From NCBI GenBank assembly GCA_016187335.1, contig JACPJW010000001.1, positions 404,170-468,169 of the forward strand: a stretch of 64,000 bases of DNA. The letters are read 5' to 3'. Under the pieces are notes generated by a model. The model did no database searches, was not told where the DNA came from, and worked only from the letters and a program-made list of their open reading frames with translations. This document shows positions 6,336 to 43,495 of this stretch, one piece after another (positions within the stretch are counted from its first letter, which is position 1; every line of letters starts with the position of its first letter). A program made the position numbers and the translations under genes. This DNA comes from Candidatus Aenigmatarchaeota archaeon. GTDB taxonomy: Archaea > Aenigmatarchaeota > Aenigmatarchaeia > GW2011-AR5.

Positions 6336-6944
6336 TCAAGGCTTATGTCTTGTAATAGCGTAGTAGGTCACGTCTCCTTCGTTATCCACAATCGCCCATA
6401 ACATCCTTGCTCGTATGTTGTGGGCAAGCCTGACAGAGCGCGAAAGTTCCTGGAACGACATGGTGAAATCCTCCGGCACCGAGAAAACTATCCATTTCGT
6501 GTGCTCTTTGGCGGATTTCGGCCCTTTCTTCAGCTGCACGCCCCTTTCATACACGCGGAAGTCGCAGCCGAACTTGAATCCTGTCCTGACAAGCAGCCCG
6601 CGCTCCCTGAGGTCTTCGTAAACGCGGTAGCGCTCCGTGAACCTTTTGTCCAGAGCAGAAGAATGCCTGAACAGCTCGTCGAATGTTATTTGTTTCTTGC
6701 TGCTGTCAAAGACCCTTATCCTGCCGCGCTTCAGCAGCAGGCACGCTTCTACCAGAGCCAGTTCAAGCCTGTCAGGAAGAATTTTGCCGTAATAGCCGGG
6801 CTCGTAAACGCTTTCAAAGTTTTTCCATGCAACTGCTTTGTTCTCTTCCAGCGTTGTATCCACAACTTCTTTGAAAGGCTCCGGCTCCACGTATTCCGGT
6901 CTATCCTCTTCAGAATCATGCTTTTTCTTGGACATTTTGAACAC
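6336..6944 (-). CDS. endA: tRNA-splicing endonuclease subunit
   Basis: 202 aa; GFKFGCDFRVYERG and EHTKW segments match the EndA catalytic-domain fold (Tyr/His/Lys region). Confidence 0.7.
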   Translation of the reverse strand: MFKMSKKKHDSEEDRPEYVEPEPFKEVVDTTLEENKAVAWKNFESVYEPGYYGKILPDRLELALVEACLLLKRGRIRVFDSSKKQITFDELFRHSSALDKRFTERYRVYEDLRERGLLVRTGFKFGCDFRVYERGVQLKKGPKSAKEHTKWIVFSVPEDFTMSFQELSRSVRLAHNIRARMLWAIVDNEGDVTYYAITRHKP

Positions 6945-7743: not shown

Positions 7744-7980
7744 TGGGAAGGGAGGGATTTCCAGAACTTTTCATCGTTTTCCTCGAAGAACATCAGTTCT
7801 TCGGTATCTCGGAGAACTATCGTTCTCCGCAGATGATCGAACTTTTCTGAAAAGTTCGTTTGGACCCTCGACATTCCCGGCGTAGCACCAATCAAGTGCT
7901 ATGCTCCACGGTCTTCAGCCGTGTGCTCTCCCAGGCTTTGCCAACCGAAAAAATCATTCTCGGTTTTGAGCTACCTTCCC
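7744..7980 (-). tRNA. tRNA-Phe (anticodon GAA) with three putative introns (D-loop, variable loop, T-loop)
   Basis: Minus-strand acceptor GGGAAGG/CCTTCCC with discriminator A; D-stem GCTC/GAGC with AGCCUGGGA loop; anticodon arm CACGG-CUGAAGA-CCGTG; exons sum to about 73 nt; T-loop junction uncertain. Confidence 0.5.
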
Positions 7981-8399
7981 ATGGATGGAAAATATACTTT
8001 TTTCGTTTTCAAAGCTTCCAACGCTATTTTTACCGGTTCGAAAAGCGGTTTAGGCAGATTTTTCAGGTCAAACCACTTAAGTTCGCTGATATTTTCTTTG
8101 TCGACAATCCTTGGCTTGCCGGATTTTATTTTCGCAGTAAATTCCACATCAACGTAGTGTTTTTTGCCGTATTTCATTATGTCGCTGATGCACAGCAGCC
8201 TTAGATTACCGACTTCAAGTCCGACCTCTTCCTTTACCTCTCTCTTGGCGCATTCTTCCAGCGTCTCGCCAAATTCAACATGGCCGCCGAACCCTGACCA
8301 TTCTCCTTCGCCGTGAGAGCCCTTTCTCCTGCCCAGCAAAATCTTGTTGCCCTGTATTATCTGGCATCCTACGCCTACCAGAGGCCTTTCCTTTCTCAT
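7971..8399 (-). CDS. NUDIX hydrolase
   Basis: Nudix box GGHVEFGETLEECAKREVKEEVG; start taken at the internal Met (MRKERPL) because the track ORF extends over an upstream tRNA. Confidence 0.75.
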   Translation of the reverse strand: MRKERPLVGVGCQIIQGNKILLGRRKGSHGEGEWSGFGGHVEFGETLEECAKREVKEEVGLEVGNLRLLCISDIMKYGKKHYVDVEFTAKIKSGKPRIVDKENISELKWFDLKNLPKPLFEPVKIALEALKTKKVYFPSMGR

Positions 8400-8402
8400 G
8401 AG

Positions 8403-8521
8403 CGCCCCGGGACGGACTCGAACCGTCGACCTTCTGCAATTAGTCAAGAAATCCAAAAACTTGCTTGACTGTTAACAGCCAGACGCTTTAGGCGTCTATC
8501 TACCTGCTGAGCTACCAGGGC
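8403..8521 (-). tRNA. tRNA, anticodon unresolved, with D-arm intron and a second 27-nt hairpin intron
   Basis: Minus-strand 5' GCCCTGG TAGCTCAGCAGGTAG and 3' GACGG-TTCGAGT-CCGTC-CCGGGGC-G; removing a 19-nt hairpin restores D-stem GAGC; two parses give 73-nt exons but neither yields a canonical anticodon loop. Confidence 0.5.
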
Positions 8522-9431: not shown

Positions 9432-12146
9432 TTAATCCAGGAAATCGCCCTTCTTCAGCTTATTAGGAAGGTAGGTCTCGGACATGAACTTAAGGCCGCG
9501 GTGCGACAAAGCTTCTATCTCGGCTTTTATTCCTTTTTCTATCATCAGGTTGATTTCCTTCTTCCATCTCGGGTTCTTGCTAAACCACTCGTAGTTGAGT
9601 AGTTCCTTCGCGCGCTTTATGTCAACTTCCTTGCATTTTATTGTCGCTTTTTTCAGGTCATACTCAAATATATCCGATATAGTAAGACCTATGTATCTGG
9701 CTTCCGGTGTCGCAATCCGATCTGAGACGTGAGCTAGGCTTATGGATCCGGATTTGATAACTGAATAAATATAGAAGCCGTACGAATCACTGTCGCAGCA
9801 TACATATACAGGCAGCTTGTGATCTTGGTTCAGCCTTTGTATCAGCAGCCTTGTTCCGCGTGATGGCTGCCCGCCTGTGCCGATCAAAACGCACTTCTGT
9901 TTCTGCCAGAACTTGTCCTCATGAAGCCGCTCAAAGCCTGCGTTCTTCTCCACGACCAAGACAAAGTCCGCGTTGACTTTTTTGAAATCTATTTCATCCA
10001 CGGTGCTCGGTATGGACCATCCCCCGCTTCCGAGCTTTGACCAGTCTATGCTGTCGCCGCGGTCTTCAATAATAACGTTGCCGGCGACAATGCCCTTTCT
10101 GTCGGTGGTGAGGTGCAATTGCTCGCGCAGAACGTCTATAGCCACTTCTATGTCAACAATTATAGGGTCAGAATTATGTAGAATTATAAATCCATTACCA
10201 CCAATGAAATTCTCAGTAGGTTCGACTGAAAGATCAACTGTATATTCAGGAGTTGGAGCGTCATTTATTTCAACTATCTTGTCCCACATAATGTCACTAT
10301 TAGCTATGGTTTCAAGTTCGGATACCAGCTGTAAATCTGGAGAATACTTTTGTAACTGCATCAAGGCGTTATATAACACAGGTCTGCTTATCGATTCGTT
10401 TTTATTTTCTATATAACTCCATGAAAAGTGGTTCCATTCAACACGATCCTTACAGGACTTTCTGACTTTTTCTACCAATTTCCCTATGTTTGGTATCCTG
10501 TCAGAAGATACGTCGTGTTTCCGCGGCTTACTGAATCTTTTATCATTGATTATTTCAGCCATCAATTTTACATCTTCTCTATTACCTATTCTAATTTCAT
10601 ATGCGTTATGGTGATTAGGATTTTGGACGCTTCTTTTATAGCGATAAATTCTTGCAAAAATTCCAAGCCTAAGCAGTAAAAATACCAATCCGTTAGCCAG
10701 CTTTTCGCTAGTTGTGTGGTACCTTAATCTAAATTTTGGAAGAAAAGTACTACCGTCTCCAAGCATAAACGAGAAAAGAAACATCTGTATACAATTTTCA
10801 GGTGAATCAAGCAAAACACGCGGTATTTCTTTATTCCATGCTCTGCAAGGCTTATACCCAATAACATAAGTCAATATGTGACTCAAAGTATCGTAACCTA
10901 CATTTAGCTTATAAACTCCATCTTTACCTAAACGTATCTTTCCGCTTACACAGCTTTTACCAAATGATTTTTCAAAGCAAATCATAAACTGCTTGAGAAG
11001 CTCTGAAGATTTGTTAGAAATAGCTACATGGTATGATTTTCGTGGTTCAAAAAGTGAATGCGAGCCTTCGCTCAAAAGAAGCCCTAGTACAAATCCTAAA
11101 TTTTCATCTTTTTTTATTAAAGCGTTGTAATAGTTCTTTGCACCCCTTCTTCCAATTTTTATTTTAGGAAGCAGATCTGAAATATCAATTCCGGTCGTTT
11201 TTACGACTTTAATTGGAATTGTTTTCCAGTTAATCCAGTTGGCTTTAACGTCAGACCATACATTCTTGTATCCGAAGTCATTTGAAATATTTTTTAGCTT
11301 ATCATTACCTATAAGCCTGATTATTTCTTTTATCGTGTCTTTATCCGATTTTATGTAAAATTCTTTTAATACACTTTCAGGGCAATTTTCAATAAGCTTT
11401 TCTAAAATATTTATATGATCAGAATTAACACCGACTTCTATTTTTCTTGGGATGGCTATCCAGTCTCCTATCTTTAGTTCTGATGTTTTTATGGATACAG
11501 GTTTTCCTTCAGAATTTGTAAACAAGCTGTGAGATTTAGTTACTTTGACACGCCTGCCACTTGATGTGATTATTTCCTTTACAATGTTAGGCGGGTGTTT
11601 CATTACCATCAGAACTTTCTGCTCCTTAATCCTGTAATTTTCATCGAAAGCGCAAACCTTAATGTCGCCAACTAAAATCTTCTTTTTATTACCATCATCA
11701 TAAATAATTCTCCCAAATTTTTCAGCATGGTCTACGACTTCGCTTGCTTGAGCTATTCTGAGTTCATCGTTTATTCTTACCAACAAAGGTTCATCGGGGC
11801 ATACAGACTCGCTCTGCTCGTCAAAGGTATTCTCGTTGCTGTCCGGCAGTGTCCTTTTCAGGTTGTAGTACATGTCTCGGATGCTGGCATGGATTTTCTC
11901 ATCAATGAGCGATTTACAGAAAGCACCGACCATAAGCGTCTGCATGAACTTCTTGGAGTGCGCGACGTTGAAGTAATACCTTTTTGCTGTCTTGGTGCCA
12001 AGCCTGAGCTGGCCGGTTTTCCTGTCGTAAACTACGTTGGAAAGAGCGCGTATTGGTATCTCTATGTTCGGGTTCTCGCCTTTCTCTATGTCATGCACGA
12101 CTTTCTTGCCCAGAACATTCAGTTCCTTTCTTACGTCTTTTTCCAT
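9432..12146 (-). CDS. top6A: DNA topoisomerase VI subunit A (Spo11-like) interrupted by an intein
   Basis: 904 aa; extein N-part (IPIRALSNVVYD...RDMYY) and C-part (WSKLGSGGWSIPS, Toprim LIGTGGQPSRGTR) match Top6A; central 543 aa has intein/LAGLIDADG blocks. Confidence 0.85.
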   Translation of the reverse strand: MEKDVRKELNVLGKKVVHDIEKGENPNIEIPIRALSNVVYDRKTGQLRLGTKTAKRYYFNVAHSKKFMQTLMVGAFCKSLIDEKIHASIRDMYYNLKRTLPDSNENTFDEQSESVCPDEPLLVRINDELRIAQASEVVDHAEKFGRIIYDDGNKKKILVGDIKVCAFDENYRIKEQKVLMVMKHPPNIVKEIITSSGRRVKVTKSHSLFTNSEGKPVSIKTSELKIGDWIAIPRKIEVGVNSDHINILEKLIENCPESVLKEFYIKSDKDTIKEIIRLIGNDKLKNISNDFGYKNVWSDVKANWINWKTIPIKVVKTTGIDISDLLPKIKIGRRGAKNYYNALIKKDENLGFVLGLLLSEGSHSLFEPRKSYHVAISNKSSELLKQFMICFEKSFGKSCVSGKIRLGKDGVYKLNVGYDTLSHILTYVIGYKPCRAWNKEIPRVLLDSPENCIQMFLFSFMLGDGSTFLPKFRLRYHTTSEKLANGLVFLLLRLGIFARIYRYKRSVQNPNHHNAYEIRIGNREDVKLMAEIINDKRFSKPRKHDVSSDRIPNIGKLVEKVRKSCKDRVEWNHFSWSYIENKNESISRPVLYNALMQLQKYSPDLQLVSELETIANSDIMWDKIVEINDAPTPEYTVDLSVEPTENFIGGNGFIILHNSDPIIVDIEVAIDVLREQLHLTTDRKGIVAGNVIIEDRGDSIDWSKLGSGGWSIPSTVDEIDFKKVNADFVLVVEKNAGFERLHEDKFWQKQKCVLIGTGGQPSRGTRLLIQRLNQDHKLPVYVCCDSDSYGFYIYSVIKSGSISLAHVSDRIATPEARYIGLTISDIFEYDLKKATIKCKEVDIKRAKELLNYEWFSKNPRWKKEINLMIEKGIKAEIEALSHRGLKFMSETYLPNKLKKGDFLD
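10173..11801 (-). mobile_element. Intein with LAGLIDADG homing-endonuclease domain inside top6A
   Basis: Begins with Cys after ...DEQSESV, block B GRRVKVTKSHSLFT, LAGLIDADG-like LGFVLGLLLSEGS and FLFSFMLGDGS, ends GFIILHN followed by Ser; region is A/T-rich relative to exteins. Confidence 0.7.
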
Positions 12147-26331: not shown

Positions 26332-27312
26332 TTAGCTTCCATCACCCTTCTTTGCTGCTCTGACAATGTCCCGCTTTGTCATCTCCTTCAGCTCATCGGC
26401 AGGAATAACCGGGATTTCCAGTTCCATTCTTTTCTTCGTGACAACAATGACGGGTTTTTCGGTTATTTCTGAAAACGCCAGCATATATCCCTCGTTCTTC
26501 TCCACTCTTTTCTCGTTTTCTTCAGCATCGGAGAATACCAGAAAACGCTCCTTGTCATGCGTTTTGGCAATGATGTTGAAAGGCGCCTGGTAAACAAAGG
26601 AAGTTCCAAAGCCCTTCCTTTTCAGCTCTTTTGATATTGCCCTTTCAAATGCAGTCCTCGGCTCTTTGCCTGCCTCTTCAAAAGAGAAAGAAGTGAAGTC
26701 AATGCTTCTCGTTACGGAGCCCAGCAGCCGCTCCATTTTCTTCGCTATAACATATTTTGATTTCATCATTTTCCTTTCATGTTCGTAGACGTTCTTCTTT
26801 GTCGTGCCCAGTTTTTCCGCCAGTTCGCTCTGAGAGAATCCCCTGCCCTCTCTGGCATCCCGCAGCAGTTCTGGATCCACTTCGGCAAAAAAGCCGCCCC
26901 TGAACCTGTAAATCAGCGGGTTTATGTTGTGCACAAGAATATTTTCAAGCGTCTTAGGCGTGAAGGTGGGTATATCAAACCTGTCGTATATCACATTGTC
27001 ATGGAGCTTCTCGCGCCTTGTCCAGATGCCTACCAGGGCGGGCGAGGCGTCCAGATTTGATGACAGCGTTTTCAGGTTGTCTGATTGCTCTTCCTGGAAA
27101 GAATCAACGTTCTCAAGAACCTTCAGCAGAATCACTTCCTGCTTCCTGGCTATTATGTCAAAGCACCCGCTGTATTCGCTGTAATCGTAGTCAGACCTTT
27201 CCAGGATACGCCCGATTTCCTCCCTTAGCATGCATAACGTTTTCGGGAAAACTTTAAAACAATAATATCCAAGCAGATATTCAAAGAGCCAATTCAAAAG
27301 AGCTTGAAGCAC
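26332..27312 (-). CDS. HTH (XRE-like) transcriptional regulator with extra domains
   Basis: 326 aa; helix-turn-helix GRGFSQSELAEKLGTTKKNVYEHERKM in the middle of the protein. Confidence 0.6.
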   Translation of the reverse strand: MLQALLNWLFEYLLGYYCFKVFPKTLCMLREEIGRILERSDYDYSEYSGCFDIIARKQEVILLKVLENVDSFQEEQSDNLKTLSSNLDASPALVGIWTRREKLHDNVIYDRFDIPTFTPKTLENILVHNINPLIYRFRGGFFAEVDPELLRDAREGRGFSQSELAEKLGTTKKNVYEHERKMMKSKYVIAKKMERLLGSVTRSIDFTSFSFEEAGKEPRTAFERAISKELKRKGFGTSFVYQAPFNIIAKTHDKERFLVFSDAEENEKRVEKNEGYMLAFSEITEKPVIVVTKKRMELEIPVIPADELKEMTKRDIVRAAKKGDGS

Positions 27313-27534: not shown

Positions 27535-28008
27535 TTATCCCTGGTACGTTTGCCTTCTTTCCCTGAACTCCAGTTTTTGCCACGAATCAGAAAGCTTTTT
27601 AGAAACCTTCGACAGATCCGGTTCAAATTCTCCGTTCCAGAAGTCCCAGACCTTCTTGATCCATTCGGCTGTCGCGTTTTCATCCGGCTTGAGCGTCAGC
27701 ATGGTGTTTTCCCATTTCAGGACCTGTATTTTCTTGTACAGCCTGAAAAGCTGCGTTACTTCCCTTTCCGTGAGCATGTTCTGCTCGTAAATGCCGGAAA
27801 ACGAATCGTAACCGGAAATTATGGGCTCTATTATCTTTTCCGTGAACATGAACAGTTTGTCTGACATCTCCGTTCTTATCTCGTCAAACGTCACTTCCTC
27901 GTCCTCAAGCTCCAGCTTGAACGCGGCTTTAAGGTCCGTCAGCTGGGGGAGCCCGAAGCGCTCTTGGATATTTTTGTATTTCTGAAAAGTAGGCTGCATT
28001 TTAGGCAC
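27535..28008 (-). CDS. Hypothetical protein
   Basis: 157 aa ORF with coherent codon usage, no recognised motif. Confidence 0.45.
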   Translation of the reverse strand: MPKMQPTFQKYKNIQERFGLPQLTDLKAAFKLELEDEEVTFDEIRTEMSDKLFMFTEKIIEPIISGYDSFSGIYEQNMLTEREVTQLFRLYKKIQVLKWENTMLTLKPDENATAEWIKKVWDFWNGEFEPDLSKVSKKLSDSWQKLEFRERRQTYQG

Positions 28009-28295: not shown

Positions 28296-28802
28296 ATGAC
28301 AGAATATTTTGATGTCGTGGACGAAGGAAACAGCGTAATAGGAAGGGCAGCAAGGGAAGAATGCCACTCCAAAGGCTTGTGGCACAGGGCTTCGCACGTA
28401 ATTATAGTTAATTCTAAGGGCGAGCTGTTATTGCAGAAAAGGAGCATGAAGAAGGATCTGTACAAGGGGTACTGGATTGACGCAGCAGCGGGCCATGTGG
28501 ACAGCGGAGAAGCCTATGAACACGCAGCAAAAAGGGAGCTGAAGGAAGAAATTGGAGTAACCGCTGCATTGATGCAGCTTTTTGATTTCAAGAAACAAAC
28601 GGGCAATGACAATGAAATAATTAGGGTATTTGCAGCGAGGCACGACGGGCCGTTTTTTCCCAACAAGGAAGAAGTCGATTTTGTCAAGTTTTTCACTCTT
28701 GAGGAAATAAACGAGATGCTGAAAAAAGACAAATTCACCCCGGCAACCCTGGATATTCTCAAGGAAATAAACAGGGACCCGTCAATACTAAGCAGGTTTT
28801 AA
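28296..28802 (+). CDS. NUDIX hydrolase
   Basis: Nudix box GHVDSGEAYEHAAKRELKEEIGV; start taken at MTEYFDVVDEG; lacks the Cys motif of type-1 IPP isomerase. Confidence 0.7.
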   Translation: MTEYFDVVDEGNSVIGRAAREECHSKGLWHRASHVIIVNSKGELLLQKRSMKKDLYKGYWIDAAAGHVDSGEAYEHAAKRELKEEIGVTAALMQLFDFKKQTGNDNEIIRVFAARHDGPFFPNKEEVDFVKFFTLEEINEMLKKDKFTPATLDILKEINRDPSILSRF

Positions 28803-28827
28803 TCCTATTCTTCCGTAATTTTAGAAA

Positions 28828-28940
28828 GGGCTTGTAGTCTAGAGACCCTTTAGAAAAAGCGTCTACGAAAAGGGTTGGAAAATGGTTATGACGTCGCCTT
28901 CACACGGCGAAGGTCGGCGGTTCGAATCCGCCCGAGCCCA
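28828..28940 (+). tRNA. tRNA-Val (anticodon CAC) with 40-nt D-loop intron
   Basis: GGGCTTG-TA-GTCT-AG [intron 28843-28882] TGGTTA-TGAC-G-TCGCC-TTCACAC-GGCGA-AGGTC-GGCGG-TTCGAAT-CCGCC-CGAGCCC-A; exons sum to 73 nt. Confidence 0.8.
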
Positions 28941-28993
28941 TAGCAACTTTCTGGAAAAAAGTTGCATTTAAGCATTACGATATTAGTGGAAAT

Positions 28994-29983
28994 ATGAAAT
29001 CAACAGCGGCAGCCAACGCGAATATTGCGCTGGTGAAATACTGGGGCAAAAGGGACAGCAGGCTCATTCTGCCACAGAACAGCAGCATATCCATGACCTG
29101 CGACGGTCTCACGACAAAGACAACTGTAGAATTTTCCGAAAAATACGGCAAAGATACTGTGCTGATAAACGACGAGGAGCTTGTGAAGGACGAGCGTGAC
29201 ATATTAGGCCACATAGAGCGTATCCGAAGCATGGCTGGAATAAAGGAAAAGGCAAAGGTGATTTCTGAATCTAATTTCCCTGTAGCTGCAGGGCTTGCCA
29301 GCAGCGCTAGTGGCTTTGCTGCCCTGACGCTTGCAGCAGCAACAGCTGCAGGTTTGAAGTTAAGTGAAAAAGAATTGACAATACTTTCAAGGCAGGGATC
29401 CGGTTCTTCATGCCGCTCAATTCCTGAAGGCTTTGTGGAATGGCACAAAGGAATCGCCGCGGACGGCAGCGACAGCTATGCGGAAAGCATTGCCGGCAAA
29501 AATCACTGGCATGATTTCAGTATGATAGCCTGCATTGTGTCAGAAGCGAAAAAGAAGGTCAGCAGCCGCGCAGGCATGGCGCAGACCGTTGCAACATCGC
29601 CTTATTATGACGGATGGCTGAGAACGGTTGATGAAGACCTGAGAAAAATCAGGGAAGGAATATTGAACAAAGACTTTTCTTTGGTCGGCATTACAGCAGA
29701 GCAGAACTGCCTGAAGATGCATGCGCTGATGATGACAACGAGGCCTTCCATAATCTACTGGATTCCTGCAACGCTTGAAATTATCCATCACGTTCAGGCG
29801 TGGAGAGAAGAAGGAATAGAGTGCTATTTCACGATAGACGGCGGACCGCAGGTGAAGGTCATGTGCCTAGAAAAAGACGAAAAAGAATTAAACAAGAGAT
29901 TGCTGGATCTGGAAGGCGTCAAAAAAACCGTGTTATGCAAGCCCGGTGATGGCGCCCAGCTTATAGGAGAACATTTGTTCTGA
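28994..29983 (+). CDS. Diphosphomevalonate decarboxylase-family GHMP enzyme (MVD/PMD)
   Basis: 329 aa; NIALVKYWGKRD N-terminal signature and GHMP Gly-rich loop (AAGLASSASGFAAL). Confidence 0.8.
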   Translation: MKSTAAANANIALVKYWGKRDSRLILPQNSSISMTCDGLTTKTTVEFSEKYGKDTVLINDEELVKDERDILGHIERIRSMAGIKEKAKVISESNFPVAAGLASSASGFAALTLAAATAAGLKLSEKELTILSRQGSGSSCRSIPEGFVEWHKGIAADGSDSYAESIAGKNHWHDFSMIACIVSEAKKKVSSRAGMAQTVATSPYYDGWLRTVDEDLRKIREGILNKDFSLVGITAEQNCLKMHALMMTTRPSIIYWIPATLEIIHHVQAWREEGIECYFTIDGGPQVKVMCLEKDEKELNKRLLDLEGVKKTVLCKPGDGAQLIGEHLF

Positions 29984-29988
29984 TTGGT

Positions 29989-30732
29989 ATGAAAGTAATC
30001 GCACTTGATTTTGACGGCGTCATTGTAGACAGCATCGGCGAGCACTATTACCTTGCTGTTTCAGCCTTTGAAGAGATGAGAAGGAACGCACAAAAATTCA
30101 GAAACCTCAGGAAGAACTTCGATTTTTTCCGCAGATTCGCAAAGGTAGCCGAGGATTTTTACGCATTTTTCGTCATGATGGAACGCGGCAAGATTCCAAA
30201 GGACGAAAAAAAGCTTGTCGCAATGCGCGATGAAATACTGAAAAAGGAAAAGAAAAACGCCGAAAGTTTTGCGAAAATTTATTTTGACATAAGAAAAAGA
30301 ACGAAAGGCAGCGAAAATTGGGCAAGGTTTTTCAAGCCAAATAAGAAGTTCGTGAGCATGGCAAGGAAGCTTTCTTTGGAACATCCCATATTCATAGCGA
30401 CAACAAGAGACGGAGAAACCGCTTACAGCATTCTCCAAAGACTCGGCGTTGAAATATCCATGGGAAATATTTTATCAAAGGATGACACTACAAACAAAGG
30501 AGAGCAGATGAGAATAATAGCCCAAAGAAGCGGCGCCAGTCTTGGCGACATAATCTTCATTGAGGATAACTTCGAGAATCTCGTGGAATCTTCCAAGACA
30601 GGCATAAAGCCCGTCCTTGTTGAATGGGGTTACAACACGCCTAGCCAGAGAAAAGAAGCCAGGAAACTCGGCATACCTGTCCTTAAGAAAAAAGGATTTG
30701 AGAAGCAGCTTATGGAAATAATTGGGAATTGA
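29989..30732 (+). CDS. HAD-superfamily hydrolase
   Basis: 247 aa; motif I ALDFDGVIVDS; embedded between decarboxylase and mevalonate kinase genes. Confidence 0.65.
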   Translation: MKVIALDFDGVIVDSIGEHYYLAVSAFEEMRRNAQKFRNLRKNFDFFRRFAKVAEDFYAFFVMMERGKIPKDEKKLVAMRDEILKKEKKNAESFAKIYFDIRKRTKGSENWARFFKPNKKFVSMARKLSLEHPIFIATTRDGETAYSILQRLGVEISMGNILSKDDTTNKGEQMRIIAQRSGASLGDIIFIEDNFENLVESSKTGIKPVLVEWGYNTPSQRKEARKLGIPVLKKKGFEKQLMEIIGN

Positions 30733-31765
30733 TAGAATGATTACCGTCTCCGCACCGGGAAAGGTTCACCTGATAGGCGAGCACGCTGTCGTATACGGCG
30801 AGCCTGCAATAATAGCTGCTATAGGTAAGAGAACTTTTGTAACACTGGAAAAATCCCCTTCATTTGTTTACAAAGACGGCAGGTTTGACGAAGCCACGGA
30901 ATTTTCCTTGGAAGAAGCCTTTGAGAAAGCCGGTGAGGCGAAAAAATTGTGGCAGGAATGTTTTGAAAAAAAGGACTTCTCGCAGCTTTTTGCTTTTGTA
31001 AAGAAGGATTACTACGGCAATTACAGAAAAGCCGCCGTCGGCTTGCTTGCGAAGAAATTCGGAATTGACCATGGACTGAAAATTCATATTCACTCAGAAA
31101 TCCCGGCAGGCTCCGGCCTGGGTTCTTCTGCCTCTCTTGCGGTTGCTTTAACAAAAGGGCTTGCAGAATTTGCCGGAAAGAGACTATCCTTGGAAGAAAT
31201 ATACAACACTGCCTTTGAGCTTGAGCATTTTATTCACGGCACTCCGTCAGGCGGCGACCATTCACCGCCATGTTATGGAGGCTTGATATGGTTCCAGAGA
31301 AGCCAGCCGAGAAACATAATAAAATCGCTGAAGCAGGAAATCCCATACCAGCTGGAAAACTTTGTTCTTGTTTACACAAAGGAGCCGGAAAAAAACACGG
31401 GCGAACTGGTGCAGGCAGTAAGAAACCTGCCTGAAGATTACAGAAACCCAAGAATTAAAGAAATAGGCTTGATGACGGAAGAAATGAAAGGCGCACTGAT
31501 CAGGAAAGATTTCTTTAAAGTGAAGGAACTGATGAATAAAACGCAAAGGATTCTGGCAGAGCTTGGCGTTTCCGTTCCGGAGATAGACGAGATTCACGAG
31601 GCTGTCAAAGCGATAGGCGGCGCGGCAAAGCTTTCGGGCGCAGGCGGAGGCGGCGTTATGATCTGCTATCACGAAGACAATGAAAAACTCAACGAAACAA
31701 TCCGCTCCCTGGGCTACGAGCCTTTGGAAACGGACTTGGGTGTGGAAGGAGTTAGGGTAGAATGA
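30722..31765 (+). CDS. mvk: Mevalonate kinase
   Basis: 347 aa; SAPGKVHLIGEHAVVYG and GHMP ATP loop PAGSGLGSSASLAVA. Confidence 0.85.
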   Translation: MGIDRMITVSAPGKVHLIGEHAVVYGEPAIIAAIGKRTFVTLEKSPSFVYKDGRFDEATEFSLEEAFEKAGEAKKLWQECFEKKDFSQLFAFVKKDYYGNYRKAAVGLLAKKFGIDHGLKIHIHSEIPAGSGLGSSASLAVALTKGLAEFAGKRLSLEEIYNTAFELEHFIHGTPSGGDHSPPCYGGLIWFQRSQPRNIIKSLKQEIPYQLENFVLVYTKEPEKNTGELVQAVRNLPEDYRNPRIKEIGLMTEEMKGALIRKDFFKVKELMNKTQRILAELGVSVPEIDEIHEAVKAIGGAAKLSGAGGGGVMICYHEDNEKLNETIRSLGYEPLETDLGVEGVRVE

Positions 31766-32865
31766 TTCATTATTCCGCTCCCGGCAAGCAGTTCATATCG
31801 GGCGAATGGTCTATCCTTGAAATGGGCAACGTAGGCGTCGTTGCGGCCGTGAACAAACGAGTGCACGCTGTTGTTCAGGCTGCTGAAAAAATTACAATAA
31901 GCATAGATGATTTTGCTATCAGCGGTCTGGAAGCGGATTGGAACGGGAAGGAGATTGTTATTTCAGGCGGCCATGAAAAAGAAAAGCTGCAGTTCATCAA
32001 GGAATCCATGGAGACAACGCTGCGTTTCCTGCAGGACAAAGGCATCAAAACAAAGCCGTTCAAAATCCGCAGCTGGGGCGAGCTTTCGCAAATAATTGTG
32101 AATGGCGAAGCCAAGAAAATCGGCTTCGGCTCGTCTGCTTCGGTTACAGTGGCTGTAACCGCGGTGCTTCTGGATTATCACGGGTATGAAGCAAGCAAGG
32201 AAGAAATATACAAATTAGCGACAATAGCTCATTACTTCGCGCAAGGAAAGGTCGGCTCTGCCTTTGATGTTGCCGCATCCACATATGGCGGCGTCTTTGC
32301 TTATTCCCGTTTTGATCCTGGCTGGCTGACAAGCAAAATAGAAAGAGTAGAAAGAATTGCAGACATAGTGAAGGAAAAGTGGCCCGGGTTCTTCGTGGAG
32401 CAGCTCGAAGTCCCTGCGGATTTTTACTTGCTTATTGCTTGGACAGGAGAATCCTTTTCCACGTCCGCAGCCATAAAAAAGATGAACGAGTTCAAGGCGG
32501 CAGATTCCGGGCAGTACCAGGAACTTATTGGAAGGGTTGCAAATACGGCCCGAAGCGTTGCTGATTACTGGAAAAGAAAAGAACGGTCTTCGGTGCTGGA
32601 ATTGCTGCGGAAGAACGAGGATTATTTGCGCGAGCTTGGGGAAAAATCCGGGGTTCCTATAGAAACGCCTGCGCTGAAGCTATTGGCAGATATTGCAAAC
32701 AAGTGCGGCGCTGCCGGGAAGCTCTCTGGCAGCGGCGGCGGAGACTGCGGCATCGGCGTATGCTTTGATGACAGGACGGCTGGAAAAGTTAAGGAAGAAT
32801 GGGAAAAAGCAGGTTTGTACTTTGTTGATGCCACAATAGACTATGAAGGCGTCAAGAAGCATTAG
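31762..32865 (+). CDS. Phosphomevalonate kinase (ERG8/bacterial type)
   Basis: 367 aa; SAPGKQFISGEWSILE, KIGFGSSASVTVAV, KLSGSGGGDCGIGV as in ERG8-type PMK. Confidence 0.8.
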   Translation: MIHYSAPGKQFISGEWSILEMGNVGVVAAVNKRVHAVVQAAEKITISIDDFAISGLEADWNGKEIVISGGHEKEKLQFIKESMETTLRFLQDKGIKTKPFKIRSWGELSQIIVNGEAKKIGFGSSASVTVAVTAVLLDYHGYEASKEEIYKLATIAHYFAQGKVGSAFDVAASTYGGVFAYSRFDPGWLTSKIERVERIADIVKEKWPGFFVEQLEVPADFYLLIAWTGESFSTSAAIKKMNEFKAADSGQYQELIGRVANTARSVADYWKRKERSSVLELLRKNEDYLRELGEKSGVPIETPALKLLADIANKCGAAGKLSGSGGGDCGIGVCFDDRTAGKVKEEWEKAGLYFVDATIDYEGVKKH

Positions 32866-35903: not shown

Positions 35904-38900
35904 TTACTTTATTTTCTTTATCTCTATACCTATTTTCCTGCCTTCAAAGTCCAGTTTTTCCCCTTCCGCCTTCGCGAACACGACCTTCGCCGCCCCCACT
36001 TCGTTCTTTATTTCTTTTTCCCATTTCTTCAGTTCCCCGGCCCCTTCTATTTTCAAGGCAATTTTGTCCATGACAACAAGCCCTGATTTCTTGCGCATAT
36101 CCTGCACTTTTCTGACAACCTCGCGGAGCAGGGCCTCTTTTTTCAGCTCGTCGGTGAGCAGCGTGTCCAGTTCCAGCTTGCCGCCGTCAAAGGGAACGCC
36201 ATTGTTCGTGTTTGCAAAAACAGCGGCTTTGACATTGCACATATTCTTTATTATTTCTGCAAAAGGCTTGAGATTCTCTTTGCTGTCCACTGTAAGCTTT
36301 GCCAGGGGCCACCTTATTTTTATGTTGCTTTCATGCCTTTGCGAGTTGGATGCTTCGACAAGGTTTTTTACGATATTCATGGCTTTCTCCGCCTTTGCGC
36401 TGATGTATTTTGAATCGTACTTAGGCCAGTCCCTGGTATGCACGGATTCCTTTTCGCCGAGGATTTCGAGGTTTATCTGCTCGGCGAGATACGGCGTTAT
36501 AGGCGCTAAAAGCTGCGATGTTTTTTCTGCTATCTCGTATAAGGTGTAAAAGGCCGCTTCCTTGTCTTTCCCTGAATACGCCGGCCATACGCGGTCCCGG
36601 ATCAGCTTTATGTACCACCTTGAAAAGTCGTTTACTAGGAAATCATGCAGCTCTGTTACGGCCTTGTGGCCGTTGTAGCTGCAGAAATGCTGGGTGCAGT
36701 TCTTTATGGTGGTGTTCAGGCGCGAAAGAATCCATTTGTCCTCTATATTCAGTTTTTTTGGCATTGAACCGCTTGACGCGTCGGTCTGTTTCGGTTTTGT
36801 TGCGTAGGTCTTCACGAAATTAAAGCTGTTTTCTATCACAATAAGAGACCTCGCAATGGCTTCAACGTCCGGCCACTTGAAGTAGAAGTCATCCCACGGC
36901 GCGCTTGACAGCAGATAGAAGCGAAGCACGTCCCGGCCGTATTTTTTTATAATGTCCTCCGGCTCGACAATATTTCCTTTGCTCTTTGACATTTTCACGC
37001 CGTGAGCGTCAAGTATGAAGCCGTGGAAAAGTATGTTCGTGAAGGGCTTCTCATCAAATGTTATTACCGACGTTATCAGCTCGGCGTTCCACCAGCCTCT
37101 GATTTGATCCGGGCCTTCTGTCTGGAAGTCGCTTGGCCACAGTTTCTTGAACAACGCCTTGTTTTTCGGGTAGCCGAGGGATGCCCATCCGGCAAGGCCG
37201 GCGTCAAACCAGACATCAAGGACATCGGCTATCCGTTTCATCGCAGAGCCGCACCTGCATTTCAAAAAAACGTTATCAATGTAAGGCCTGTGCAAATCAC
37301 GGGGTATTTCCGGCAATTCGTCAGCGGAGCCGATGACCTTGACGCTTTCGCATTTCTCGCATATCCATATCGGCAGCGGTATGCCCCAGTAGCGCTGCCT
37401 TGATATAGGCCAGTCGCCGAGGTTTTCAAGCCAGTTGTTGAACCGTTGCTTTGCCCATTCAGGGTACCAGTTCACATTCTTGTTTTCCTTGATGAGCTTG
37501 TCCCTTATCTTCGTCACGCGGAAGAACCACTGCGACACGGATATCAGCAGCAGGGGAGTGCTGCAGCGCCAGCATTGCGGGTAGTCGTGCGTTATCGTTT
37601 CCTCCTTCAGCAGCAGGTCTTTTTCCTTCAGCAGTTCAATTATTTTTTTGTCGCTTGCCTTGACAGGATTTCCAGCAAAAGCACCGCATTTCTCGTCAAA
37701 AGTGCCGTTGATTTTCACCGGAGATATTATGGGCAATTTGTTTTCCAGACCGACTTTGTAGTCCTCCTGTCCGTGCCCGGGGGCGGTGTGGACAAGCCCG
37801 GTGCCGTCTTCCATGCTCACGTACTGCTCTGAAAGCACAACCTTGTGCGCGCCTTTGAGCTGCTGCTGGAATGTAAAAATGTCCCGGAGCGGATGCTCGT
37901 ATTCTGTCCCAGCCAGCTTTTTTCCGGGAAACGTTTCCACAATGCTGAATGGCAGTCCGGCTTTCTTCATAACAGCTTCAAGAAGCGGCTTTGCCAGGAT
38001 AAGAAATTCAGTTCCACCAGAACTTTCCACCATTACCTTGACATATTCGTGCTTCGGATGCGCCATGATGCCTGTATTAGCTGGTAACGTCCACGGCGTT
38101 GTCGTCCATATGACCAGGAACACGTTTTCTTGTCCTTTCACCGGAAACTTAACATAAATAGAAGGGTCCTTGGCTTTGCTGTATTCTATTTCGTTGTACG
38201 CAACGGCTGTTTCGCAATTATGTGTCAAGAAGCCGTTAGTTATAAAGTTGTGATGAGTTTCAACTGCTATATCACATACTTTCCGTTTCCCCTTATATTT
38301 TATAGAATTTATTTCATCCCAAATAAATCCGTCTCTGAGGTCTTTTGCAGCATTTTTTAACCATGCATCGAATGCAGGGGTATATTTGGCAGCACGAACT
38401 GACTTAGACTTGCCATAAACCACATGCCTTACATAAAGTTCAGGTAAGTTAAGCATAATTGCGATTTTGCTGCAAGGGATCTTAGAATGTCTTAGTGATA
38501 AGATCCTACCTTTCAATTTTCTGTATTGTTTCTCAAGTGATTTTTTGTACAGAAGATAGCCCAAAACATGCGAAGCCCTGATTTTTCTGTATTTACAGTA
38601 CTCGTATCCTAAATACCGTATGAATTTAATGAGGTTGTAATCGTTGCAATCTATACTGATAGTGGTCTTCGATTTTTCTATTTTATTAACAATATTTCTT
38701 TCTGTTTTTATTTCTCCTGTCGATACCCCAAACTTATTGATAAGCGCGCATATCTGTTTTGCAAATTCCATCCCGTTTTCTTCTAGATGTCTATTTTTTG
38801 TAAGGTAAAGCCTCAGGCATTCAAATCCCTTTCCATATTTTCTGGGGCTTATTATCTGGAGTTCGCTTCCGAAGTAAGATGCCAAAAATTCCCTTGTTAA

Positions 38901-40421
38901 TTTTTTATTGGACTTTATCCATTTTGGCACAAATGTCTTTGTTTCCGTCTTTTTTCCTATAGGACAGCCTAGCGTTATAAGCAAAACAGCCAAAGACAAA
39001 GAATAACATCTCATGGATGTTGTAAATCCCTTTATTGCTCTGCCATTTACGACAGATTTAGTTGGCACGGTTGAAATATCCGAATGGCTAAAGCCAAGAA
39101 TCTTTAGGTCTTTTTGGATTTCTTTTAAATCTTCCTCTTTTCCGCAGAAATCTATGCCAAATACCGGGAATTTTCTGTTTTTAGATGTACGTACAACAAT
39201 AGATCCATCACCAAAAATATGACCTGCCAATCTGGCTAAAATAAATGATTTTGTAGATTTACTGTGAAGAGGTATCAGTTCTTTATCTTTCAATTCATTT
39301 ATTATAGAATCGTAGCGCGTAAACGTATTTACTTTTAAAATTTTTGCTACCCATGATTTTGAAACTCTTATTTTGAAGGCGTTTTGTATTTCTTTAATAA
39401 TTTTAGTATATGAATAGTTATTTTTTCTAAGTTCGGCAACAAAGTTCTTAATTTTAATTTTCGAATGACTTGTAAGGTCGTTAAATTTATGCAGATCTCT
39501 GAAAACTATATTTTCTAAGTTCTGCAAAGTAAACATTACATTATTCTCATTTACAAGAGCTTTGCCTGTTTCCGTAATTTCCGGCAGTCTGCTTTCCACA
39601 TTATTATATACGGCCACTTTGGTTCCTATTCTGAGCTTAGAAAGAGTCATCCATCCATCTTGCGTCCAGAACGGATGATCACTCGAAGCGATTAGTTTCT
39701 TTCCTGTTAGCGTTTTTACAAGAAATACATTATCTTCCAATTCCACATAGCCCAGAGGTTTTGCCGTAGTTAGAAGTTTAGAATTAGTATCAACAGCTAC
39801 AACCGTGTTGTGTTTCCAGCAGCCTTTCAGTTCTCCTATTTTTCTTGTTCCCCCTTCAACAAGAATAGTAGAATTAGGATCAACGCATCTCGGGCATACA
39901 TGCACCGGATAAAGACCCTTGTAGAGCAGTCCCTTGTCGTAAGCGGTCTTGAACGTGTGCCACGCGCCCTCTATGTACTCGTTGTTGTACGTTATGTAAG
40001 GGTTGTCCCAGTCCATCCACACGCCAAGATTCAGGAACTGGTTATTCATGACAGAAATGAACTGGCTGACGAACGCCCTGCATTCCTTGTTGAATCTCTC
40101 GACGCCTAGCCTTTCTATATCAGCCTTTGATTTTATCTCCAGTTTTTGCTCGACCTTGTTTTCTATCGGCAGCCCGTGGGTGTCGTAGCCCGGCTGGTCC
40201 CATACGTCGAAGCCGGACATGCGCCAGAATCGGATGTAGCTATCCTTCAATATTTTGTTCCAGGCAGTGCCTATGTGTATGTAGCCCGTGGCGTAAGGCG
40301 GGCCGTCAAGGAAGTAGAATTTCTTCTTTCCTTTTCTTTTTGTCTTGGCCTTCTGGTAAATGCCGTCTTTTGCCCAGAACTCGGCGATTTCTTCTTCTTT
40401 TTTCTTGCGGCTTTCTATCAT
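35904..40421 (-). CDS. ileS: Isoleucyl-tRNA synthetase interrupted by an intein
   Basis: 1505 aa; HIGH (YIHIGT), KMSKS (KMSKSKGN), WPISRQRYWGIPLP; 557-aa insertion between CPR and CETA of the zinc-binding region. Confidence 0.9.
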   Translation of the reverse strand: MIESRKKKEEEIAEFWAKDGIYQKAKTKRKGKKKFYFLDGPPYATGYIHIGTAWNKILKDSYIRFWRMSGFDVWDQPGYDTHGLPIENKVEQKLEIKSKADIERLGVERFNKECRAFVSQFISVMNNQFLNLGVWMDWDNPYITYNNEYIEGAWHTFKTAYDKGLLYKGLYPVHVCPRCVDPNSTILVEGGTRKIGELKGCWKHNTVVAVDTNSKLLTTAKPLGYVELEDNVFLVKTLTGKKLIASSDHPFWTQDGWMTLSKLRIGTKVAVYNNVESRLPEITETGKALVNENNVMFTLQNLENIVFRDLHKFNDLTSHSKIKIKNFVAELRKNNYSYTKIIKEIQNAFKIRVSKSWVAKILKVNTFTRYDSIINELKDKELIPLHSKSTKSFILARLAGHIFGDGSIVVRTSKNRKFPVFGIDFCGKEEDLKEIQKDLKILGFSHSDISTVPTKSVVNGRAIKGFTTSMRCYSLSLAVLLITLGCPIGKKTETKTFVPKWIKSNKKLTREFLASYFGSELQIISPRKYGKGFECLRLYLTKNRHLEENGMEFAKQICALINKFGVSTGEIKTERNIVNKIEKSKTTISIDCNDYNLIKFIRYLGYEYCKYRKIRASHVLGYLLYKKSLEKQYRKLKGRILSLRHSKIPCSKIAIMLNLPELYVRHVVYGKSKSVRAAKYTPAFDAWLKNAAKDLRDGFIWDEINSIKYKGKRKVCDIAVETHHNFITNGFLTHNCETAVAYNEIEYSKAKDPSIYVKFPVKGQENVFLVIWTTTPWTLPANTGIMAHPKHEYVKVMVESSGGTEFLILAKPLLEAVMKKAGLPFSIVETFPGKKLAGTEYEHPLRDIFTFQQQLKGAHKVVLSEQYVSMEDGTGLVHTAPGHGQEDYKVGLENKLPIISPVKINGTFDEKCGAFAGNPVKASDKKIIELLKEKDLLLKEETITHDYPQCWRCSTPLLLISVSQWFFRVTKIRDKLIKENKNVNWYPEWAKQRFNNWLENLGDWPISRQRYWGIPLPIWICEKCESVKVIGSADELPEIPRDLHRPYIDNVFLKCRCGSAMKRIADVLDVWFDAGLAGWASLGYPKNKALFKKLWPSDFQTEGPDQIRGWWNAELITSVITFDEKPFTNILFHGFILDAHGVKMSKSKGNIVEPEDIIKKYGRDVLRFYLLSSAPWDDFYFKWPDVEAIARSLIVIENSFNFVKTYATKPKQTDASSGSMPKKLNIEDKWILSRLNTTIKNCTQHFCSYNGHKAVTELHDFLVNDFSRWYIKLIRDRVWPAYSGKDKEAAFYTLYEIAEKTSQLLAPITPYLAEQINLEILGEKESVHTRDWPKYDSKYISAKAEKAMNIVKNLVEASNSQRHESNIKIRWPLAKLTVDSKENLKPFAEIIKNMCNVKAAVFANTNNGVPFDGGKLELDTLLTDELKKEALLREVVRKVQDMRKKSGLVVMDKIALKIEGAGELKKWEKEIKNEVGAAKVVFAKAEGEKLDFEGRKIGIEIKKIK
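38217..39887 (-). mobile_element. Intein with LAGLIDADG homing-endonuclease domain inside ileS
   Basis: Starts CVDPNSTILVEGG, contains ILARLAGHIFGDGSI, ends FLTHN followed by Cys; A/T-rich relative to exteins. Confidence 0.7.
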
Positions 40422-42696: not shown

Positions 42697-42870
42697 TTAC
42701 TTAATTCTCAAAACAGGTTTTCTGTCACCATTGATGACCGCGGAAGGATATTCATCCCGGCAGAGATACGAAGGTCTTTCGGAATGACCGCAGGCGAGAC
42801 GCTGTTCCTTTACCCGATTACTTCTGAGAATGCTGTTTTGATTAAGAGAGGTGTTGGAAATGCTAAATGA
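42697..42870 (+). CDS. AbrB/SpoVT (MazE-like) swapped-hairpin small protein, start codon unclear
   Basis: Hand translation ...SVTIDDRGRIFIPAEIRRSFGMTAGETLFLYPITSENAVLIKRG...; no in-frame ATG/GTG/TTG upstream of the domain before a TGA at about 42640. Confidence 0.35.
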   Translation, partial: LLNSQNRFSVTIDDRGRIFIPAEIRRSFGMTAGETLFLYPITSENAVLIKRGVGNAK

Positions 42871-43495
42871 TTGTCTACTTTTCATATTCGATCTTGATGG
42901 AACGCTGTATTCTAAGGATAGGGAAAAAAATTACTACAGAGAGCTTCAAAAATTGAGGAAAAGATTCATTGCTAAAACATTAGGCGTACCATTGAAAGAA
43001 GCGGATAGAATTCTTGCAGGTCTAATCAGCAATTATGGTGAAAATATAGATATCACCTTAGAAACCGAATATGGTGTACCAAAGCCGAGATACTATGCAG
43101 AAACTGCAGGTTCTGTTCCTGTTGAAGACATAATTTCTTATGACCCAAAACTACGTTGCATCTTATGTCAAATAGACTCTACGAAATCTGTTTTGACAAA
43201 TGCACCTAGTGTCTGGGCAGAAAAAGCGATAGGACAGCTAGGAATTGCAGACCAGTTTGGCTTGGTAATGACATGTGATGACGGCATCGTAAAGCCGCAG
43301 GAAGAAGCCTTTCTAAGGGTATGCAGAGGCGCCGCTGTGGAACCAAAAAGAGCCATTGCCGTAGGAGATAACCCTCAACGGGACTTATACGTTCCAAGAA
43401 AGCTCGGGATGAAAACTGTTTCTGTGGGTGTTTTTGACACAAATGCAGATTTCTTCATAGATTCCATTTACGGGTTGCCAGAAATTTTGAGGTGA
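42851..43495 (+). CDS. HAD-superfamily hydrolase
   Basis: 214 aa; motif I FIFDLDGTLYS, motif IV AVGDNPQRD; A/T-rich codons. Confidence 0.7.
   Translation: MLEMLNDCLLFIFDLDGTLYSKDREKNYYRELQKLRKRFIAKTLGVPLKEADRILAGLISNYGENIDITLETEYGVPKPRYYAETAGSVPVEDIISYDPKLRCILCQIDSTKSVLTNAPSVWAEKAIGQLGIADQFGLVMTCDDGIVKPQEEAFLRVCRGAAVEPKRAIAVGDNPQRDLYVPRKLGMKTVSVGVFDTNADFFIDSIYGLPEILR

Follow-up and report, generated by a model that had tools for sequence, protein, structure and literature searches.

A HAD-family phosphatase gene within a putative classical mevalonate operon of a Candidatus Aenigmatarchaeota archaeon and its link, with an IDI-like Nudix gene, to DPANN mevalonate clusters

Why should a phosphatase gene stand in the middle of a mevalonate operon? 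This question is raised by a 64-kb stretch of DNA from Candidatus Aenigmatarchaeota archaeon (contig JACPJW010000001.1, positions 404,170 to 468,169), hereafter called the window, in which the gene for a HAD-superfamily phosphatase lies between those for diphosphomevalonate decarboxylase (DMD, also called MDD) and mevalonate kinase (MVK), followed by that for phosphomevalonate kinase (PMK). A preliminary description, made from the sequence alone, had read these genes as a bacterial-style classical mevalonate operon and had left the role of the HAD without explanation. We show here that the HAD and a Nudix protein resembling type 1 isopentenyl diphosphate isomerase (IDI) are conserved and physically linked partners of mevalonate genes across DPANN archaea, and we weigh the reactions that they may catalyse. 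All window coordinates are positions in the 64-kb stretch, and gene calls were taken from a listing of open reading frames (ORFs) and from curated profile searches. The features of the locus are as follows.

28296-28802, + strand: IDI type 1/YfcD-like Nudix hydrolase, 168 aa (Pfam NUDIX, E 5e-24)
28828-28940, + strand: tRNA-Val(CAC) gene with a predicted D-loop intron of about 40 nt (Rfam, and ARAGORN after in silico intron removal)
28994-29983, + strand: DMD, 329 aa, first of the four operon genes (TIGR01240)
29989-30732, + strand: HAD-IA phosphatase with C1 cap, 247 aa (Pfam Hydrolase/HAD_2)
30737-31765, + strand: MVK, 342 aa, with ATG at 30737 (TIGR00549)
31762-32865, + strand: GHMP-type PMK, 367 aa (TIGR01220)

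Since the junctions measure 5 nt between DMD and HAD, 4 nt between HAD and MVK, and minus 4 nt between MVK and PMK, where the PMK start overlaps the MVK stop, the four genes form one tight operon. The coordinates and profile matches thus agree with the earlier statement that decarboxylase, HAD, MVK and PMK are clustered on the same strand, and that a Nudix gene and a tRNA-Val gene, whose CAC anticodon can be read from the sequence, precede them. An alternative TTG start of MVK is present at 30722, and the form of 342 aa is also called on independent contigs. The order DMD-HAD-MVK-PMK was found again on independent assemblies and in a relative, L013/14, whose proteins are 52-81% identical, and the locus is therefore neither an assembly accident nor a chance arrangement.

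The window very probably encodes the classical lower mevalonate pathway as one operon, in which MVK would phosphorylate mevalonate, PMK would give diphosphomevalonate, and DMD would decarboxylate the latter to isopentenyl diphosphate (IPP). The three curated models are exceeded by DMD (TIGR01240, 311 bits against a cut-off of 171), MVK (TIGR00549, 216 against 163) and PMK (TIGR01220, 246.6 against 165.7), and the GHMP motifs of MVK, PGKVHLIGEHAVVYG, GSGLGSSA, SGGD and GAGGGG, are found in the alignment. The decarboxylase required closer attention, as the solved protein that it matches best, 6n0x/6n0z of Anaerolinea thermophila (259-264 bits), is a phosphomevalonate decarboxylase (PMD; PMC9254496). 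Enzymes that are true MDDs score slightly lower, at 249 bits for that of Enterococcus and 234 bits for that of Staphylococcus. In MDD of S. epidermidis the residues binding diphosphomevalonate are Tyr18, Lys21, Ile/Asn27, Ser139, Ser141 and Ser192, and the MPD type has Tyr, Leu/Met, Arg/Thr, Ala/Ser, Ser and Thr/polar at those positions (PMC3857490, Dellas 2013, Table 4). When aligned with the S. epidermidis and E. faecalis MDDs, the window decarboxylase is of MDD type at all six (Y16, K19, I25, GSGS and SSR), with the motifs KYWGK...LILP, GSGS and VSSRAGM; its FTIDGGP motif contains the catalytic Asp. At the same sites the wild-type enzyme of Anaerolinea reads KYWGN, LRIP and GSTQGH (Asn, Arg, Thr-Gln and His), and the variant 6n0z differs from 6n0x by two changes, Asn to Lys and His to Met, both of which match the window residues. 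Against the PMD model NF040704 the window protein reaches only 183 bits for a cut-off of 475, and these signature residues and model scores rule out its identification as a PMD; it does not group with these enzymes. The classical reading MVK, PMK, DMD is thus supported, because the decarboxylase has every DMD signature residue and no PMD one, and because a PMK is encoded in the operon.

The description as bacterial-style holds in part. It is fair at the level of models, since PMK agrees much more closely with the GHMP-type model of Gram-positive bacteria than with that of Sulfolobus type (Arch_PMK, 108 bits for a cut-off of 500) or ERG8 (98 for 377), both of which stay below their cut-offs, and the best solved relatives of PMK are Listeria Lin0012 (3k17) and S. 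pneumoniae PMK. It does not hold for the history of the gene. Of 648 clusters of PMK homologues at E <= 1e-20, none of the best 120 falls below 52% identity, and their named sources are exclusively Aenigmarchaeota, Nanoarchaeota or 'archaeon', with the named proteins called PMK; the trait is therefore entrenched in the phylum and is not a recent import. The classical operon itself is not new: its proteins already bear names in the NCBI annotation, and earlier work reports the classical route for some DPANN archaea (PMC11052028).

The HAD is by no means peculiar to the window genome; it is a conserved member of DPANN mevalonate clusters. Taking every retrievable locus of the high-scoring archaeal HAD clade, we obtained 12 independent contexts, and in all 12 the HAD gene lies inside a mevalonate cluster, of classical or archaeal type, with MVK 0-3 genes away. 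Spacers flanking the HAD gene are short (-4 to about 46 nt), gene order varies, and the HADs of the other contexts share 52% (L013/14) or 23-35% (the remaining ten) of their residues with the window HAD. In a rough neighbour-joining tree made without bootstrap, the HADs linked to mevalonate genes group as a single clade that excludes the members in histidine operons and bacteria. The contexts are arranged as follows, where HMGS and HMGR are HMG-CoA synthase and reductase and MVK' is a tandem MVK paralogue.

Window and L013/14: DMD-HAD-MVK-PMK
L017 (= L009): Nudix133-HAD-MVK-His_Phos_1-DMD-...-IDI-like Nudix-PMK
L025: HAD-MVK-His_Phos_1-DMD-x-PMK
L019 and L020: HAD::Nudix fusion, then MVK and type 2 IPP isomerase
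L018 and L044: (HMGR)-HMGS-x-thiolase-DUF35-MVK-MVK'-HAD-UbiX-UbiD-AcnX
L043: HMGS-x-thiolase-DUF35-methyltransferase-MVK-MVK'-HAD-DMD-PMK
L042: methyltransferase-MVK-decayed MVK'-HAD-DMD-...-PMK
L045: MVK-HAD-DMD-PMK
L049: MVK-UbiX-x-UbiD-HAD-AcnX

In L018 the AcnX gene is followed by genes for the AcnX swivel subunit and an amino-acid kinase resembling isopentenyl phosphate kinase (IPK), and the L044 contig stops within AcnX.

Comparison of three of these loci narrows the choice of substrates. At the same locus, L043 (4969-9918) has HAD-DMD-PMK, whereas L044 (5022-10792) and L018 (8036-15100) have HAD-UbiX-UbiD-AcnX, and between L043 and the other two the thiolase is 95%, HMGS 87-93%, the two MVK paralogues 78-89% and the HAD 73% identical. 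Since such close relatives differ in route genes only beyond the HAD, the lower-pathway cassette appears to have been exchanged at one locus with the HAD retained, and the swap between classical and archaeal routes looks like a recent one. Because the HAD was kept across this swap, its substrate must be common to both routes or lie downstream of them, i.e., phosphomevalonate, IPP and dimethylallyl diphosphate (DMAPP), or their products. The same loci bear on the view that the HAD, alone or with the Nudix, supplies UbiX with dimethylallyl phosphate (DMAP) from DMAPP for making prenyl-FMN, the cofactor of the UbiD-type decarboxylase in the archaeal mevalonate route, and that in genomes with the classical route it is a relic or serves another UbiD enzyme. 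UbiX is the direct neighbour of the HAD gene in L018 and L044, and UbiD and AcnX flank it in L049, DMAP is the substrate of UbiX, and Nudix enzymes are a known source of DMAP in E. coli (PMC12359138). However, the window and five other contexts have DMD and PMK with no UbiX or UbiD nearby, and a tblastn search across the 64-kb window for HMGS, thiolase, type 2 IPP isomerase (IDI2), IPK, UbiX, UbiD and AcnX gave no match. Retention of the HAD after the change to the classical route counts against UbiX supply, and a HAD monoesterase would be expected to destroy DMAP, not to make it, so that we give this view very little credence.

The Nudix gene upstream of the operon is the second part of the problem. 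The earlier name, NUDIX hydrolase, stands and can be refined to an IDI type 1/YfcD-like Nudix that seems to belong functionally with the HAD. Among NCBIfam models the window protein scores 98 bits with YfcD, below the cut-off, and 77 and 65 bits with IDI models whose cut-offs are 127 and 106; its best solved relative is E. coli YfcD (2fkb, E 5e-19), with IDI structures next. The Nudix box, of consensus GX5EX7REUXEEXGU (PMC5389931), is complete in it (GHVDSGEAYEHAAKRELKEEIGV). At the positions of the IDI metal ligands His25, His32, His69, Glu114 and Glu116 the aligned window residues are H, H, H, D and E, and the equivalents of the diphosphate ligands R51 and K55 are also kept. The position of the catalytic Cys67 of IDI is Ala in the window, L013 and P0241 and Ser in L009, with the Glu116 equivalent kept, and the C-terminal Trp region of IDI is absent from the window Nudix according to our reading of the alignment. 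We had considered this protein as the IPP isomerase of the operon, and this is ruled out by the lack of Cys67 in the window and three aligned Aenigmarchaeota relatives together with the intact hydrolase box. Since the IDI ligands are kept, Cys67 is replaced and the hydrolase box is intact, the Nudix appears to be a hydrolase of diphosphates with a pocket of IDI type. A model of it computed with AlphaFold2 (AF2) from a 3-sequence alignment reached a pLDDT of only 60.

Gene fusions tie the two proteins to each other and to the pathway. Fusions of HAD with the IDI-like Nudix were found in at least five lineages (P0034, P0267, P0269, P0295 and P0342, 406-413 aa); in each, the Nudix half aligns with the whole of the window Nudix, at 51-61% identity (E 1e-66 to 7e-80), and none of the five proteins has a Cys directly before Gly-His, a further reason for rejecting the isomerase reading. 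HAD is also fused to a small MutT-like Nudix in L019 (9983-11137), L020 (9950-11125) and P0279, and its orthologue in L017 is the Nudix whose gene overlaps the start of the HAD gene. In P0241 (535 aa) the IDI-like Nudix is fused to PMK.

The HAD is a catalytically complete HAD-IA enzyme as judged by its motifs, D7-F-D9 (DxD), T138, K170 and E192-D193, all of which show conservation of at least 90%, or no variation at all, among 23 members of the clade. Its AF2 model (pLDDT 90.3) has an unusually large helical C1 cap with six helical segments in residues 16-112, and its fold is closest to phosphoglycolate-phosphatase-like enzymes, with beta-phosphoglucomutase also among the structural matches. 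A search with the single HAD sequence among 5.8 billion proteins yielded only six homologues, whereas a profile built from the archaeal members yielded 480, and an exhaustive profile search of 1.84 billion cluster representatives gave 366 at E <= 1e-30. The profile scan of metagenome contigs gave 7 loci only, mostly short, one of which (L035) is too short to reveal neighbours.

On this basis we tentatively propose that the Nudix and the HAD constitute a two-step module that acts on one of the diphosphates of the pathway, IPP/DMAPP being the most likely, and serves as a valve for overflow or homeostasis or as a source of DMAP. The Nudix would cut the diphosphate to the monophosphate, isopentenyl phosphate (IP) or DMAP, and the HAD would then strip the last phosphate to give a free C5 alcohol. 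The module would serve as a valve against toxic IPP/DMAPP, and in the UbiX/UbiD-type clusters of relatives it might instead supply DMAP. A valve role is proposed because the module is wired to the pathway genes, and IPP/DMAPP is the most likely diphosphate because the Nudix has an IDI-type pocket, because hydrolysis of diphosphomevalonate would make the Nudix::PMK fusion a futile cycle, and because there are precedents: Nudix enzymes of E. coli act as hydrolases on DMAPP and IPP (PMC12359138), the B. subtilis enzymes NudF and YhfR came to light because they relieve IPP/DMAPP toxicity and give isopentenol (PMC6132537), and an insect HAD enzyme is a farnesyl diphosphate phosphatase (PMC3734299). 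We hold this two-step reading with somewhat less than even confidence, and the whole explanation, a classical operon with a Nudix/HAD accessory dephosphorylation module, comes close to an even chance of being correct but does not quite reach it. An extra phosphatase gene of the His_Phos_1 family, that of B. subtilis YhfR, is present in the Aenigmatarchaeota clusters L017 and L025. Doubtful, in our view, is the wider generalization that DPANN archaea run an operon-encoded Nudix/HAD branch that turns IPP/DMAPP, or another phosphate of the mevalonate pathway, into free membrane-permeant alcohols whatever the lower route; the purpose of such a branch could be a safety valve, the missing archaeal DMAP source for prenyl-FMN, or an exchange of C5 units with the host.

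Several points weigh against the two-step module. Draining IPP in an operon that makes IPP costs 3 ATP per molecule; a valve expressed together with the pathway would be a sensible safeguard but a costly one. Since no Nudix lies near the HAD in the clusters outside Aenigmatarchaeota (L018, L042-L045 and L049), the HAD may act alone there, on another substrate. In the closest relative, L013/14, the HAD is 52% identical and its neighbours 72-81%, and this faster evolution suggests an accessory role, not a core one. The cap arginines R48 and R102, together with the phosphoglycolate-phosphatase-like fold, suggest a better fit to an anionic substrate (a phospho-acid or pyrophosphate) than to a prenyl tail. 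The only phosphomonoester common to both lower routes, and so to the classical and archaeal-type clusters that keep the HAD, is phosphomevalonate, not IP. The HAD family is also not confined to isoprenoid metabolism, because its distant members, described below, occur in histidine operons, in Nudix-cupin trios and beside UbiA.

The common phosphomonoester leads to the view that the HAD is a phosphomevalonate phosphatase opposing MVK, setting flux or recycling phosphate when downstream steps stall. The HAD gene is nearly always the immediate neighbour of the MVK gene, the phosphoglycolate-phosphatase-like enzymes closest in fold act on small phospho-acids, and conserved Arg residues at or near the specificity loop of the cap could bind a carboxylate. 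The conserved arginines are, however, family-wide and also present in the members from histidine operons, and co-transcription of MVK with a phosphatase undoing its reaction would amount to a futile cycle consuming ATP. Such a function would also leave the Nudix fusion without an account unless the Nudix cuts diphosphomevalonate, and the Nudix::PMK fusion would then be a second futile cycle. We regard a phosphomevalonate phosphatase as unlikely.

Lower-scoring relatives of the HAD were found in the following settings.

L047 (7001-7792) and L027 (272-1066): between hisA and hisF in Woesearchaeota-type histidine operons
L048 (1126-1896): beside a histidine operon
L016, L023, L024 and L046: Nudix-cupin-HAD trio, Atribacterota
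L026: Nudix gene directly adjoining the HAD gene
L021: adjoining a UbiA prenyltransferase gene, in a metagenome-assembled genome (MAG) of Thermoanaerobaculales

These settings are relevant to a housekeeping role, in which the HAD would be an inorganic pyrophosphatase, or a nucleotidase working with a house-cleaning Nudix, and would merely ride in the operon with no mevalonate-specific substrate. Relatives occur in histidine operons, by Nudix-cupin genes downstream of DNA-repair genes, and by UbiA; several pathways around them release pyrophosphate or abnormal nucleotides; the small Nudix fused to HAD in L019 and L020 is MutT-like; and fast evolution of the HAD is in line with such a role. Nevertheless, every context of the HAD clade is a mevalonate cluster despite the rearrangements and the low identity (23-35% in ten of the eleven relatives), the grouping of the mevalonate-linked HADs in the rough tree counts against housekeeping, and the fusions specifically concern an IDI-like Nudix that is itself fused to PMK, so that we consider a housekeeping role distinctly improbable. 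As an observation on the sister clade in histidine operons, the MAGs concerned are of Woesearchaeota/Nanoarchaeia type and have another HAD as the likely histidinol-phosphate phosphatase; one idea is that the histidine-operon HAD might remove the by-product AICAR (ZMP) in purine-auxotrophic DPANN archaea.

Another view is that the HAD catalyses an unrecognised step of a further pathway variant, as a mevalonate-phosphate phosphomutase or in making a permeant C5 alcohol for exchange between episymbiont and host. Its gene is invariably placed inside the cluster, with either lower route, HAD-IA enzymes include phosphomutases such as the beta-phosphoglucomutase among the structural matches, and the clusters contain conserved companions without an assigned function, namely a protein of 281-290 aa, an MVK paralogue and a methyltransferase. 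On the other hand, all steps of both known routes are already covered by other genes of the clusters and nothing points to a specific new reaction, which makes this view highly improbable to us.

The companions can be described in their own right. The protein of 281-290 aa, encoded between HMGS and thiolase in the DPANN mevalonate superclusters L018 (5162-6022), L043 (610-1482) and L044 (2237-3082), has no Pfam or NCBIfam match and is 53-61% identical across the three. Tandem MVK paralogues precede the HAD in L018 (8036-9954), L043 (4969-6962), L044 (5022-6962) and L042 (5100-6983); they are about 35% identical to each other and both above the TIGR00549 cut-off, and the type 'a' has an altered motif II, GVGLGYSSA. 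This type has decayed in L042, and L045 and L049 lack it. In the classical-type clusters L042 (3708-5024) and L043 (3583-4917), the MVK genes are immediately preceded by a gene for a methyltransferase of 438-444 aa dependent on S-adenosylmethionine (SAM). P0363 is a fusion of HAD with a SAM-methyltransferase, and its kinship with the methyltransferase of L043 was considered and dropped, as the two are not homologous.

The tRNA-Val gene lies between the Nudix gene and the operon. Rfam matches a tRNA at 28872-28940 (38 bits), and ARAGORN found no tRNA in the genomic DNA of the entire window. A perfect acceptor stem is formed by the 3' strand CGAGCCC with GGGCTTG at 28828-28834 and not with the 5' end chosen by Rfam; deletion of about 40 nt (about 28843-28882) restores a canonical D-arm, TA-GTCT-AGTGGTTA-TGAC-G, and ARAGORN calls tRNA-Val(cac) over a range of such in silico deletions of 35-47 nt. 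By this reading of the sequence, the gene occupies 28828-28940 and has an intron at a non-canonical D-loop position, and both the miss by ARAGORN and the partial span in Rfam arise because the intron splits the gene. Two other Rfam tRNA matches in the window, at 8403-8521 (- strand, 119 nt) and 56405-56509 (+ strand, 105 nt), are of such lengths that introns are probably present there too, and a tRNA-splicing endonuclease gene is found at 6336-6944 (- strand).

Regarding the surroundings of the locus, the gene for ribosomal protein S17e lies beyond PMK and converges on its stop, and a candidate TATA-like AT-rich element, ATTTAAG, was noticed by eye at 28966-28972, about 25 nt upstream of the DMD start. 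A scan for sigma-70 promoters and terminators gave matches at chance level only, with a bacterial model that is not applicable to an archaeal host. Next to the Nudix gene, an ORF of 154-157 aa without a family match (27535-28008, - strand) is kept in L013 (1950-2417), and a helix-turn-helix regulator of PRK04140 type lies beyond it (26332-27312, - strand). The locus is surrounded in the window by housekeeping genes of archaeal type (thermosome, Nop5, fibrillarin, topoisomerase VI and tRNA-splicing endonuclease), and a Pfam scan of 30 further window ORFs found only unrelated genes, mostly housekeeping ones. Inteins are contained in isoleucyl-tRNA synthetase (35904-40421, - strand) and, with a LAGLIDADG homing-endonuclease domain, in topoisomerase VI subunit A (9432-12146, - strand). 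A second Nudix in the window (7971-8456, - strand), of NAD diphosphatase/MutT-like kind, adjoins an EamA transporter gene and a tRNA, and a second HAD (42851-43495, + strand), resembling pyrimidine 5'-nucleotidase (102 bits, below the cut-off), lies about 1.3 kb upstream of the histidyl-tRNA synthetase gene; both are outside the mevalonate-linked clades.

In the literature searched, we found nothing on a HAD or phosphatase in DPANN mevalonate clusters, on named phosphomevalonate or isopentenyl-phosphate phosphatases, or on a module of HAD and IDI-like Nudix, its DPANN-wide conservation, its recurrent fusions and the cassette swap between close relatives. The new part of this study is therefore the accessory pair, which gene position and gene fusion connect with mevalonate genes in deeply divergent DPANN archaea. 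If IPP/DMAPP is indeed dephosphorylated, this would be the first natural, genetically hard-wired counterpart of the Nudix-plus-phosphatase valve introduced by metabolic engineers against IPP toxicity and of the plant Nudix/IPK cycle, and the pair could also bear on the archaeal source of DMAP for prenyl-FMN. The exchange of lower routes between close relatives bears directly on how the variants of the mevalonate pathway evolved, which is under debate. An unexplained HAD gene has been turned into a short list of testable reactions, and both proteins are small.

Compared with known systems, the window operon has the same MVK, GHMP-type PMK and DMD in a one-strand cluster as the known classical systems, namely the mvaK1-mvaD-mvaK2 operons of Gram-positive bacteria and the pathway found in Sulfolobales and in some DPANN archaea. 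It differs from these in its order DMD-HAD-MVK-PMK, in the HAD inside the operon, in the IDI-like Nudix upstream, and in that no IPP isomerase gene is found in the cluster or elsewhere in the 64-kb window; its PMK is also unlike the Sulfolobus-type archaeal model. The window Nudix shares the Nudix fold and IDI-type ligands with type 1 IDI, which lacks the hydrolase Nudix box that is intact in the window protein and has Cys67 where the latter has Ala. For E. coli YfcD, its closest solved relative, no function or substrate was found in the literature searched. The window HAD is 12-18% identical to COG0546/phosphoglycolate-phosphatase-like HAD-IA proteins (e.g., S. pneumoniae SP0104, PDB 2ah5) and has a larger cap, and these matches say nothing on its substrate because they are themselves uncharacterised structural-genomics proteins.

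The insect farnesyl diphosphate phosphatase resembles the window HAD in belonging to the HAD superfamily and in acting, as would the proposed module, on a prenyl diphosphate, one just downstream of the mevalonate pathway (PMC3734299). It is a eukaryotic enzyme with a C15 substrate, and is compared with the window HAD at the superfamily level only. It belongs to a different, NagD-like HAD subfamily with a C2 cap. Closer in design are NudF/YhfR, the E. coli enzymes NudB, NudF, NudI and NudJ, and the plant Nudix/IPK cycle, in which a Nudix likewise removes one phosphate from a prenyl diphosphate, and the monophosphate so formed can be dephosphorylated by a second phosphatase; modules of NudF/YhfR type relieve IPP/DMAPP toxicity or tune the pools (PMC6132537, PMC12359138). 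These known Nudix and phosphatase enzymes are promiscuous housekeeping enzymes that are encoded elsewhere or engineered in, whereas the genes of the putative pair in the window lie within or beside the pathway operon, their orthologues are fused in several lineages, and the Nudix has a scaffold derived from IDI.

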